Virus record (IMG/VR): IMGVR_UViG_2974640449_000001
Span: 242 to 64,241 of that record
Direction: 5' to 3' (one strand)
From: a virus
Taxonomy: Duplodnaviria; Heunggongvirae; Uroviricota; Caudoviricetes; Demerecviridae
Length of the DNA stretch: 64,000 bases
Shown: piece by piece, positions 60,798 through 64,000 of the stretch
Numbering within the stretch: position 1 is the stretch's first letter
Layout of the letters: each line of letters begins with the position of its first letter
Made by a program: the position numbers and the translations under genes
Notes under the pieces: model-generated
Databases searched by the model: none
Told to the model about the DNA's origin: nothing
Seen by the model: the letters and a program-made list of their open reading frames with translations, nothing else

Positions 60798-60811
60798 TAA
60801 AAATCTCCCAT

Positions 60812-61543
60812 GTTAGTTAAACATACATATTTAAAGTGTGTAGCACTAAAAACATTACTAATACCGACTTTCACTAGCTATCCTGCACGCACTCCCTCAG
60901 AGATCATCATGGATACAGACTTCACTAGCTTCATTCTCTACGTAACCCTTGCATATCCCTACTCCAATTGTAGGTTGGTTAGTCACTCAATCCCGATTCG
61001 CGTACTACTTCCACTAGGTGGTGGGTGAGTCTTCCTCTGTTAGACAATATGTTACTGCCATCGCTATCCTTGGCGACAGGTACGTTGTTCGTTGGCTTCT
61101 GGAACTCCCCCATTAACATCCAACCTGAACACTTAGTTTTCATTACCATTCCACTCTTATACCAATCAAGAATATACTAAAATACAGAAGACTCCCACAG
61201 AGATCACTGCCTTAGGTACCCCAATATATCTATCATACTCACACAAATGTGTGCCACATAACCTTGTACCTCCGGAGCATTACCGAGTCATACCAAAATC
61301 AGTTACCAGCTATGTGGATGCTATACAGCTAGCTACACTGTATAGGTACGTTTACAATACTATCACATTAACAGAGAGGGCTTCAATCTAAGGGCATTGC
61401 CACAAAGCCATACTTCTCACTACCTTCTGTCTGATGCTTCAAGTTATTTTTATAGACACTCCTAGAATGCCCATAAAGATAACGGGGTAGAGGGCACTAC
61501 CCCAGGAGAAGCGCAATATGGAAATCGACTCTTTCGAATCAAT
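60812..61543 (-). ncRNA. Candidate large structured non-coding RNA / D2 leader
   Basis: Consensus promoter upstream, no credible long ORF, many local and long-range helices. Confidence 0.55.
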
Positions 61544-61549
61544 ACACAT

Positions 61550-61578
61550 AGTATATAACAATTGATTAACAATGTCAA
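61550..61578 (-). promoter_or_regulatory. sigma70 promoter driving the long leader and D2
   Basis: TTGACA-N17-TATACT. Confidence 0.85.
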
Positions 61579-61917: not shown

Positions 61918-62109
61918 TAAAATATTCCTATGTCTTTCAAACTTGCATATATTATACGACAAATAGGGGTGTTTTAGCAAATACATTTTTGTTTTACTGC
62001 CAAACTCGTACGTCCATAATATAAGTATGATGTCAAGTACCATGTTTTAGGGATTCTTGTCAACTTAATTTTTACGACAAATAGCATACCAGAAACTTAA
62101 AAACTTTAT

Positions 62110-62138
62110 TTGATCTGAATCAAGGAATTTGTTATAAT
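62110..62138 (+). promoter_or_regulatory. nrdD promoter with a perfect FNR box over the -35
   Basis: TTGAT-CTGA-ATCAA (62110-62123); TTGATC-N17-TATAAT. Confidence 0.7.
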
Positions 62139-62180: not shown

Positions 62181-64000
62181 ATGATAATTACAAAACGTGA
62201 TAACACAAAACAAGCATTCAACCTGAACAAAATCTATGAAGCCGTATTTATGGCTGCAAGCGATGCTGACCTAGATTACACCGAAGCAAGTCAAGTTGCT
62301 AACGATACTACCCAGCTAGTAATCCATCGGCTTCAGGAAGAAGGCAAAGAAGAAGCAAGTGTATATGAGATTGAAACGCTCATTGAAAACACACTTATGT
62401 CCAGCTGTTGGAAAGATGTGGCACGTAACTTTATTGAGTACCGCCATGACCGCCAGCAGGCGCGGGATTTAGAAAGCGATTTACATAAAAATATCGTTGG
62501 TCTGGTAGACCAAACAAACCCTGATATTCTACACGAGAACGCAAATAAAGAATCAACAGTATTCCACGTTCAGCGTGACCTTTTGGCAGGTGAAATTTCT
62601 CGCCATTATGCCTTGAATTACCTACTACCACGCGAAGTGGCTCGTGAGCATATCGCAGGTAATATCCATTTCCATGACCTTGACTATTTCCCTATGATGG
62701 GCATGACAAACTGCTGTCTTGTAGACCTTGAAGGTATGCTTAAAAATGGCTTTAAGATGGGTAACGCACAGATTGAGTCTCCAAACTCAATTCAAACTGC
62801 CGCTACCGTAGTATCTCAAATCGCTGCGGCTGTTGCAAGCTCACAGTATGGTGGTACATCATTTGACCGTCTAGATGAAGTTCTAGCTCCTTATGTGACT
62901 AAGACTTACCAGAAAGAATATAAGCGTGCTATGTCATTATTCCGTCGCTTTACTGGTACAGATGTTGTAGTTGACGACCTAGCCTTAAACTGTATAGAGT
63001 CTGAAGCGCGTATTGCTACTGAAAAAGCAGTATTTGATGCTTGTCAGACTTTAGAGTATCAAGTAAATACTATTTACTCTACTAACGGTCAAACTCCGTT
63101 CTTGACGTTTGGTTTTGGTCTAGGTACCTCATGGGAAGCTAAGCTAGTGCAGAAAGGCATTTTACAGAACCGTATTGCGGGTCTAGGTAAAGAAGCCGCT
63201 ACACCAGTATTTCCTAAACTAGTATTTGGTCTGCGTGACGGTGTAAACCTAAAACCAGAAGACCCTAACTACGATATTAAGCAACTAGCATTAGAATGCG
63301 CAACTACTCGTATGTATCCTGATATTCTTAACTACGATAAGACTGTCGAAATTACAGGCGGATATAAAGCACCTATGGGTTGTCGTTCATTCCTATCTCC
63401 TTGGTTTGATAAAGACGGCAAAGAAACCTATGCTGGTCGCAACAACTTAGGTGTAGTTTCGCTAAACATCCCTAAGATTGCTCTTGAAGCACAACTAGAC
63501 TATGATAAGTTCTGGACGCTATTGGAAGACTACTGTGAAATAGCTCACCGTGCTCTACAGTACCGACTAGAACGTTTGTCAACTGTAAAAGCTAAATCCG
63601 CGCCTATTTTGTATATGGAAGGTGCGCTAGGGCTACACCTAGACGGCGAAGAGCTTGTCCTTCCACACCTGTTGAAGCGCGGTGCTAGCATTTCTCTAGG
63701 CTATATCGGTCTAGAAGAAGCAGCTAATGCAATGCTTGGCAGCATGATTCATACTTATGATGAACCAGAAAAACAACAATTTGCTTTAGACATTGTTAAG
63801 TTCCTGGACAAAAAAGCAAAAGAGTGGAAAGAGGCAGAAGGTGTAGGTTACTCAATCTATGCAACACCTAGTGAATCTCTATGCAATCGCTTCTGTAAGG
63901 CTATTGTACGTGAATACGGTGAATTTGAAGGTGTAACTGATAAAGGTTACTTAACTAACTCATTCCACCTAGATGTACTGAAGAAGGTTAACCCTTACGA
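62181..64000 (+). CDS. nrdD: Anaerobic (class III) ribonucleotide reductase large subunit with ATP cone, truncated by the window end
   Basis: ITKRD ATP cone, IHFHDLDY, TNCCL, NGQTPF, PVFPKL, MGCRSFL, GRNNLGVV, ATPSESLC. Confidence 0.95.
   Translation, partial: MIITKRDNTKQAFNLNKIYEAVFMAASDADLDYTEASQVANDTTQLVIHRLQEEGKEEASVYEIETLIENTLMSSCWKDVARNFIEYRHDRQQARDLESDLHKNIVGLVDQTNPDILHENANKESTVFHVQRDLLAGEISRHYALNYLLPREVAREHIAGNIHFHDLDYFPMMGMTNCCLVDLEGMLKNGFKMGNAQIESPNSIQTAATVVSQIAAAVASSQYGGTSFDRLDEVLAPYVTKTYQKEYKRAMSLFRRFTGTDVVVDDLALNCIESEARIATEKAVFDACQTLEYQVNTIYSTNGQTPFLTFGFGLGTSWEAKLVQKGILQNRIAGLGKEAATPVFPKLVFGLRDGVNLKPEDPNYDIKQLALECATTRMYPDILNYDKTVEITGGYKAPMGCRSFLSPWFDKDGKETYAGRNNLGVVSLNIPKIALEAQLDYDKFWTLLEDYCEIAHRALQYRLERLSTVKAKSAPILYMEGALGLHLDGEELVLPHLLKRGASISLGYIGLEEAANAMLGSMIHTYDEPEKQQFALDIVKFLDKKAKEWKEAEGVGYSIYATPSESLCNRFCKAIVREYGEFEGVTDKGYLTNSFHLDVLKKVNPY

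Follow-up and report, generated by a model that had tools for sequence, protein, structure and literature searches.

The 64,000-nt window analyzed here (positions 242 to 64,241 of IMG/VR record IMGVR_UViG_2974640449_000001) comes from a T5-like Vibrio phage of the Ermolyevavirinae (Demerecviridae), whose nearest public relatives are Thalassavirus and Vipunavirus phages. Immediately upstream of the gene for the D2 helicase, it contains a region that we interpret as the template of a structured, cis-acting 5' leader of the D2 mRNA, ~746 nt in length; our estimate of the probability that this interpretation is correct is about 0.5. The leader is best explained as the form taken in Vibrio phages by an RNA, so far undescribed, that precedes D2 across the T5-like family (Demerecviridae). 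It matches no catalogued RNA family, and no published description of it was found in the literature searched. A sequence-only reading of this DNA had proposed a promoter-driven, conserved, structured noncoding RNA of an uncatalogued family, and this core idea is largely borne out by the relatives. Among the three options offered in that reading (a new large phage RNA, a replication primer or origin, and a complex regulatory leader of D2), the last is the best fit because the RNA adjoins the D2 ribosome-binding site (RBS), no terminator other than a weak hairpin lies between them, and contigs from T5 reach into D2, although part of the fold proposed at that stage is unsupported.

Judging from the position of its promoter, transcription of the leader would start near A61543. 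The promoter is of the sigma-70 type, lies on the minus strand (61578-61550), and matches the consensus at 11 of 12 positions, with TTGACA (61578-61573) and TATACT (61555-61550) separated by 17 nt, as had been noticed from the letters alone. Its -35 box is invariant in nine relatives that share the window's leader allele (type A) and recurs in Pontus, KIT04, pVp-1, VPT02, and JSF10; every member of the Ermolyevavirinae that was examined has it, down to JSF10 and phi 3, distant phages of V. cholerae. From the predicted start, the leader (61543-60798) reaches directly to the Shine-Dalgarno (SD) sequence and ATG (60797) of D2, and no terminator was found between the two ends apart from a weak promoter-proximal hairpin (61504-61483). 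The transcribed strand had been described as G-rich, and its GC skew is indeed +0.24, compared with +0.09 in the D2 coding sequence.

The absence of a credible gene from these ~745 nt, another element of the first description, also holds. The longest open reading frames (ORFs) in the leader encode 56 aa on the sense strand and 72 aa on the antisense strand, and none of the leader ORFs has a Pfam or PHROG match. Every leader ORF of at least 38 aa is broken by a stop or a frameshift in at least one close relative. In PVo5, VPG01, and VF16, for example, the 56-aa ORF is cut short by a stop, and in VPG01 and VF16 it also has a frameshift; its variable sites are distributed 6/1/6 over the codon positions, without codon periodicity. 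A search for a leader peptide of the IncFII tap or IncI-alpha repY type found no conserved short ORF, and none is common to the B or JSF10 alleles described below. GenBank records do contain ORF calls inside the leader (30 aa and 56 aa in Gary, 56 aa in AG74 and Thalassa, and an antisense ORF in Luma), but these annotations are probably spurious, since the ORFs equivalent to those of the window are disrupted in close relatives. They are the evidence for supposing that the region does nothing by itself, being either a string of small genes or a neutral spacer. That supposition is scarcely credible in view of the disrupted frames, the lack of codon periodicity and of family matches, the conservation above synonymous sites, and the compensatory changes (both below), and small protein-coding genes were rejected as candidates on the disrupted frames and the lack of family matches. 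"Hypothetical proteins" of 30-78 aa are annotated in leaders at L015:2039-2318 (Gary gp75 and gp74), at 803-973 of both L019 and L021, at L020:909-1142, and at L006:1703-2327 (D124). T5-like phages are classic models that are widely used in phage therapy and in research on defense systems, and the leader is either annotated nowhere or misannotated as tiny ORFs; annotators should drop the small-ORF calls there.

Catalogue searches were uniformly negative. The best-scoring Rfam 15 models for the window leader were those of eukaryotic snoRNAs, whose 14-19 bits fall far short of gathering thresholds, and the T5, L041, JSF10, Pontus, L048, and L050 loci gave no Rfam match at E-values up to 1. The leader was also negative in a tRNA and tmRNA search (ARAGORN), and models for GOLLD, ROOL, OLE, and raiA did not match it even at E-values up to 10. 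The proposed Rfam/Infernal check has thus been run without a match to any family, and the Rfam and ARAGORN results agree with the earlier statement that the region lacks the likeness of group I or II introns, RNase P, tmRNA, or tRNA.

Comparison with Vibrio relatives provides the main evidence for selection on the leader. Its body in the window (61352-60829), here termed cassette A, is found in 41 phage records at 93-96% identity, and an alternative body of ~650 nt, cassette B, occupies the same place in Pontus, KIT04, Hades, Wyman, and Pylo, with a variant of B in pVp-1 and VPT02. Approximately the first 100 nt of the transcript and the last 27 nt before the ATG are common to all Thalassavirus and Vipunavirus phages. 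In JSF10 and phi 3, the gap upstream of D2 measures 1100 nt. The leaders of the window and Gary share 95-96% identity, whereas identity at D2 third codon positions is 89% over the first 300 nt and 56-63% further in; because leader identity exceeds that of the third positions, the leader is under purifying selection on its nucleotide sequence.

The alleles share more than their position. With nhmmer, a profile built from cassette A matched the 3' domain of cassette B in Pontus at E 0.0012, and its match to JSF10, at E 0.0045, covered almost the entire leader with the order unchanged. Short conserved islands of single-stranded sequence stand at fixed distances from the ATG: UACGUAGA at -147/-149/-146 and UCGGUA at -70/-61/-67 in alleles A/B/JSF10, and GGAUAG at -86/-81. 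When JSF10 is threaded on the type-A fold, 68% of pairs are kept, with nine double changes, compared with 35-46% in slid controls. A helix between two GCUAGU segments (H15) is present in all three alleles (A, B, and JSF10), where its pairs covary. On these comparisons, cassettes that seem unrelated by BLAST are remote homologues of one RNA family. The window leader also contains a 93-nt module (61445-61353) that is a gap in all 41 other type-A leaders. Two segments of this module, AGGUAGUGAGAAGUAUGGC and GAUUGAAGCCCU, recur in the same order in the 5' module of cassette B (collinear in Pontus and KIT04), so that the window leader is a mosaic of a type-A body and a type-B-like module. Optional inserts of ~90 nt also occur in T5-like leaders (L031, L038, and L052).

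An untranslated stretch of 0.4-1.1 kb precedes D2 in all of the ~14 Demerecviridae lineages sampled. The ORF-free gap measures 665-1100 nt in Vibrio T5-like phages, ~730 nt in D124 (where it is filled with annotated ORFs of 30-55 aa), 617 nt in T5, 434 nt in Serratia phage Kamaji, 353 nt in Pantoea phage AAS21, and 598-716 nt in other T5-like phages. Among T5-like phages, identity is 90-95% in the leader but 70% at D2 third positions, and here the comparison is free of a confounding recombination block. Their hallmark is a hairpin ~170-290 nt upstream of the D2 ATG that carries an invariant GCUUAGCGGC and an outer stem that differs in sequence across five lineages, namely T5 (L023:1290-1360), L041, L048, L050, and AAS21 (L007); this clean covarying motif would be a good seed for a family model. 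The T5-type leaders resemble the window's in their position directly 5' of D2, their strand, their promoter-driven and ORF-free character, their length (430-1100 nt), conservation above synonymous sites, compensatory changes, and swappable modules with optional inserts, and the short islands ACGUAC..CCAA..GGAUAG(C/U)GA are common to T5, L048, and the window. They differ in having no alignable similarity to the Vibrio version (nhmmer found none) and in their hallmark hairpin, which is absent from the window leader. In T5, moreover, a terminator precedes the promoter, while in the window a terminator-like hairpin follows it.

The fold was derived with RNAalifold from nine type-A leaders, which gave a multi-domain structure (alignment columns are cited for individual pairs below). 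Its consensus energy is -171 kcal/mol on the sense strand compared with -123 on the antisense strand, and seven compensatory pairs occur in H4, H6, H10, H11, H15, and H16. In a stricter test, a structure was predicted from one sequence, the substitutions in the others were scored for pairing, and the adjacent D2 coding sequence served as the control. Pooled single changes kept pairs in 61% of cases in the leader and 39% in the coding sequence, and pooled double changes did so in 27 of 28 and 30 of 45 cases, respectively. When only unique events were counted, 62-71% of changed pairs were kept in the leader and 33-51% in D2 coding sequence, an excess that is significant for two of the four reference structures (p 0.002 and 0.003). 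In the T5-like phages, the kept fraction was 0.60 compared with 0.44, with 11 of 11 double changes kept compared with 17 of 30 in the coding control, and Pontus and VPT02 showed an excess in double changes only. Single-sequence predictions for a 750-nt RNA are only partly correct. The comparisons make a conserved fold likely for the window's allele and for T5, with support that comes helix by helix rather than globally and that is moderate, not overwhelming.

For expression, assembled RNA contigs of T5 were considered. In two independent RNA libraries, contigs stop just past the upstream terminator, at 933 (with adapter sequence) and 989. Coverage by contigs resumes at 1046-1064 and extends without interruption across the leader and into D2; in two further libraries, a single contig spans the whole stretch. 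By analogy, these contigs weakly suggest that the window leader would be the 5' part of the D2 mRNA. The contig ends agree with an intrinsic terminator at 907-927 and with a promoter immediately before the leader. Within L023:900-1070, T5 has TTGCAG and TATAAT separated by 17 nt, with an extended -10, which a simple promoter scan had missed.

Several observations weigh against a structured cis-acting leader. The minimum free energy of the whole leader is indistinguishable from that of dinucleotide shuffles (z = -0.06); an excess of stability over shuffles had been set beforehand as a test, and it is absent. Since chance alone should produce ~17 perfect 7-nt complementarities in a sequence of 750 nt (an arithmetic estimate), the helices first picked out by eye mean little when taken alone. 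The first null applied to the alignments, column shuffling, gave large z-scores for the window allele, cassette B, and two T5-like groups, but a 569-nt control from D2 coding sequence also scored z ~ -4.4, with 8 "compensatory" pairs where 3.5 were expected. That null was consequently too lenient; energy z-scores and raw compensatory counts were discarded, and only the lower broken-pair count and the coding-controlled tests were kept. In the stricter test, the unique-event excess is not significant for structures predicted from the window or Gary (p 0.33 and 0.12), and within cassette B (Pontus and KIT04) there is zero excess of kept pairs. Two covariance models, R1 and R2, gave weak full-length matches at equivalent positions in VPT02, Pontus, and JSF10 (E 0.08-1.4); they were built from near-identical type-A domain sequences and generalize poorly as a result, and a match at E 0.006 proved spurious, being located within a D2 coding sequence. 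The T5 contigs are assembled, and they can neither define transcript ends nor rule out that part of the RNA is processed or terminated. The predicted partner of the SD sequence (below) differs between alleles, without covariation. Finally, translational control seldom calls for anything near 600-1100 nt of RNA.

If the leader does act in cis, one route would be through the D2 SD sequence. RNAalifold pairs UCUCCU (61509-61504) with GGGAGA at 60809-60804 in both the type-A and type-B alignments, and the pairing probability of the SD is 0.92-0.98 in Gary and KIT04 (with UCUCC at leader nt 35-40 as the partner). In the window RNA, the predicted partner is instead a CUCUC run within 61380-61373, inside the 93-nt module. 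The SD is predicted to be paired in six of six Vibrio leaders, with differing partners, and we retain a closing helix between SD and anti-SD as a hypothesis. Under the proposed mechanism, the leader RNA would act in cis on the D2 mRNA, a 5'-terminal hairpin (H1) would shield the transcript, as 5'-terminal stem-loops generally can, and a promoter-proximal, terminator-like hairpin (H2) might attenuate transcription. The folded body would hold the D2 RBS paired, and D2 translation would depend on refolding, on processing, or on a bound factor, for which D2 itself is one candidate. Such a cis regulator would be among the largest phage mRNA leaders known.

The association of the leader with D2 raises another explanation. 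In 41 of 41 cassette-A records, the N-terminal region of D2 is 94-97% identical to that of the window, compared with 77-78% in holders of cassette B and 70% in the JSF10 type; leader allele and the first ~300 residues of D2 are thus inherited together in Vibrio phages. Gary and Pontus are 97-99% identical in the flanks and 0.86-0.96 at distal D2 third positions, yet they differ in the leader and D2 nt 1-900, and both alleles occur in both Thalassavirus and Vipunavirus. This pattern would suit a leader RNA, whole or excised, that works with D2 in the initiation of replication, either as an R-loop or primer or as an RNA cofactor of the D2 N-terminus, with matched alleles. The G-richness of the RNA, which favors RNA:DNA hybrids, and a size beyond what regulation seems to need point in the same direction. 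However, co-inheritance is as compatible with linkage in one recombination tract as with a specificity pair, and in T5-like phages the central leader module has been replaced without additional divergence of the D2 N-terminus (91% versus 93% amino acid identity). Unlike ColE1 RNA II, the T5 contigs carry on past the leader into D2, and no credible promoter for an antisense regulator was found on the plus strand within the leader (the best site, at 61041-61070, matches 9 of 12 positions, and the number of sites is within shuffle expectation). We regard this replication role as unlikely, although motifs in the N-terminal region of D2 count in its favor.

Residues D108, D110, S151, S153, G155, and H163 of D2 are invariant across Vibrio and T5-like homologues, forming DxD and S..G..H-type motifs, and the fold matches of this region, all weak, point to the archaeo-eukaryotic primase (AEP) primase-polymerase class: AsfvPrimPol (E 4e-3, the lowest value), the LigD polymerase domain, and vaccinia D5. 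The underlying model is poor (predicted local distance difference test score, pLDDT, of 56), and the region has no Pfam or PDB sequence match. On the basis of these residues and matches, D2 may combine a primase with a helicase and be more than a simple origin-binding protein. The DxD (IIHMDIDG) and S..S.G...H residues lie within D2 residues 1-390 (60797-59628, minus strand). The origin of T5 has never been mapped to sequence, and D2 has been proposed as an initiator (PMC3632103). A narrower proposal, in which replication is started by the leader RNA and the primase-like N-terminal domain of D2 acting as an allele-specific pair, and in which the two are exchanged as a single specificity module, appears to us distinctly improbable. 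Were it correct, the transcript would mark or prime an origin beside the initiator gene, as an R-loop or bound RNA, and T5-like phages would possess an RNA-guided origin, placing the long-sought origin of T5. Any joint action of the RNA with D2 would be a pointer to how these phages begin DNA synthesis.

The element could alternatively act as DNA, that is, as an origin or protein-binding region read by D2, with the helices representing hairpins extruded from single-stranded DNA. The gene that it directly precedes is annotated as an origin-binding protein, the element is conserved above synonymous sites, and the related UL9 protein of herpes simplex virus (HSV) binds a hairpin form of its origin. 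The leader also contains a 16-nt repeat, UGAUCUCUG(U/A)GGGAGU, whose copies at 61191-61206 and 60891-60906 are exactly 300 nt apart; this pair is far beyond the chance expectation for 750 nt, and each copy includes a small CUCU/GGAG hairpin. The repeat was not seen in alleles B or JSF10. A GCTAGTGAA pair and a AACGTACCT pair are likewise located in the leader, so that all of the internal repeats first listed exist, and the GCUAGU/GCUAGU helix accounts for one of them. But the repeats are in two copies only: no iteron array (three or more direct repeats) and no A+T-rich unwinding element was found, and leader GC (0.40-0.46, with extremes of 0.37-0.465 across the region) equals or exceeds that of the flanks, for which reasons an iteron-type or DnaA-type origin was rejected. 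In addition, G-U accounts for many of the conserved pairs and is an intermediate in many of the exchanges, which is workable on the sense strand only, the antisense energy is much weaker, and the region is transcribed in T5. We therefore attach very little credence to a DNA-level role.

Rapid turnover of the alleles invites comparison with an arms race, in which the RNA would be a decoy or counter-defense RNA, or a target of host immunity. Its modular, fast-diverging alleles with optional modules on the 90-nt scale, the exchange between genera, and the strong early-type promoter are in keeping with this idea, and phage replication proteins, T5 D10 among them, trigger retron defense (PMC12746101). 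The Rfam searches revealed no similarity to known defense-related RNA, though, and the fixed place before D2, together with islands at set distances from the ATG, indicates a role tied to D2 expression. Such a function has only a small chance of being correct.

Like ColE1 RNA II, the proposed D2 leader would be a folded, G-rich, promoter-driven noncoding RNA of several hundred nt in a replication module, and genes for a Pol I-type polymerase and for RNase H occur in the T5-like family, a further likeness to the ColE1 setting; ColE1 RNA II and the T4 oriF and oriG transcripts are precedents for R-loops or primers that mark origins. RNA II is not an mRNA leader, however, whereas the window transcript most likely continues into D2, and no equivalent of the antisense RNA I was found in the window leader. 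The IncFII repA/CopT and IncI-alpha/IncB rep leaders and the T4 gene 32 and 43 operators are folded leaders of initiator or replication genes that occlude the RBS, as is predicted for the window. They measure 50-200 nt and are mostly controlled by an antisense RNA or a leader peptide; the window leader is 3-10 times larger and, compared with the IncFII and IncI-alpha types, lacks a conserved leader ORF and an evident antisense promoter. GOLLD, ROOL, OLE, and raiA share with it a large, multi-domain, covariation-supported architecture, carriage by phages, and an unassigned function, but they are free-standing, whereas the window RNA is probably fused to an mRNA and has much thinner covariation support.

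The predicted fold is described here from the 5' end, with all features on the minus strand. H1 (61543-61524) is a GAAA-capped 5'-terminal hairpin that begins ~1 nt after the predicted start and is invariant in type A (columns 78-85/90-97). The candidate anti-SD UCUCCU (61509-61504), a thermodynamic prediction without covariation, is directly 5' of H2 (61504-61483), a G+C-rich, terminator-like hairpin of 8 pairs (5 of them G-C) followed by UUAUCUUUAU. The H2 stem does not vary among Thalassavirus and Vipunavirus leaders, and the hairpin has the stem-plus-U-tract form of an intrinsic terminator, although the tail, TTATCTTTAT, is a weak, interrupted U-tract; H2 may serve as an attenuator, or it may end the transcript of the gene upstream. 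H3 (61477-61449; columns 144-156/160-172) has three changes in River4, all of which keep pairing. It is followed by the 93-nt module, with AGGUAGUGAGAAGUAUGGC at 61425-61407 and GAUUGAAGCCCU at 61388-61377, and by a five-hairpin domain (61352-61200) that comprises H4 (61347-61318), H5 (61317-61254), H6 (61253-61240), H7 (61239-61223), and H8 (61222-61200). Compensatory pairs in this domain are at columns 277-299 (C-G/U-A), 281-295 (U-G/C-G/U-A), and 372-377 (U-A/C-G).

The next domain (61198-61021) is closed by a long-range helix, H9 (61198-61186 with 61035-61021), around H10, H11 (61131-61120 with 61095-61086), and H12 (61082-61053). Two conserved islands within it, ACGUACCU (61085-61078) and CAGAGGAAGAC (61039-61029), are common to JSF10 on one diagonal. 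A change from U to C at column 435 keeps H9 pairing, and further exchanges occur at columns 443-479 (G-C/A-U), 501-526 (G-C/A-U/G-U), and 544-561 (A-U/G-U). The 3' domain (61015-60835) is the best-conserved part across leader alleles, with islands GUGACUAACCAACC (60986-60973), UACGUAGAGA (60944-60935), GGAUAGCUAGUG (60883-60872), and AGUCGGUAUUAG (60869-60858). It includes H15 (60929-60924 with 60878-60873) and has compensatory pairs at columns 697-745 (G-C/A-U) and 715-736 (A-U/U-A). The final segment before D2 (60824-60798) consists of a small hairpin (60824-60810), the SD GGGAGA (60809-60804), and the spacer to the ATG (60797).

All eight complementarities listed in the sequence-only reading are present in the sequence, and the relatives separate them. 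The helix 61321-61328/61338-61345 is well supported, by the C-G/U-A and U-G/C-G/U-A exchanges, and the long-range helix 61184-61198/61021-61040 by one pairing-preserving change. The pairing 61254-61260/61311-61317 and the two 5' hairpins (61525-61542 and 61484-61503) are invariant or compatible with the structure, and comparative support for 60953-60958/60911-60916 is ambiguous. Two helices were rejected on comparative evidence. The 3' arm of 61466-61472/61392-61398 is inside the 93-nt segment private to the window phage, so that this helix cannot be conserved and the local hairpin H3 is favored. The proposed pseudoknot, 61120-61126/60972-60978, is contradicted by G61120 to A in three phages and by a change at 61126 in Thalassa; G61120 covaries instead with C61095 in the local helix H11.

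The D2 gene itself (60797-58008, minus strand) encodes a 929-aa, SF2-type helicase annotated as "replication origin binding" (phrog_3712, score 1495). Upstream of the leader, on the same strand, is a gene (61917-61603) for a 104-aa protein of unassigned function (phrog_19008); a search for loci carrying this protein returned two, both from known phages. Beyond it, nrdD (anaerobic ribonucleotide reductase) starts at 62181 on the plus strand, divergent to the genes on the D2 side. The divergent promoter region between nrdD and the 104-aa gene (61951-62138) is A+T-rich (GC 0.29-0.30) and has promoter-like sites back to back at 61980-61951 (minus strand) and 62110-62138 (plus strand). Cumulative GC skew turns in this same region, as expected from the switch in the direction of transcription.

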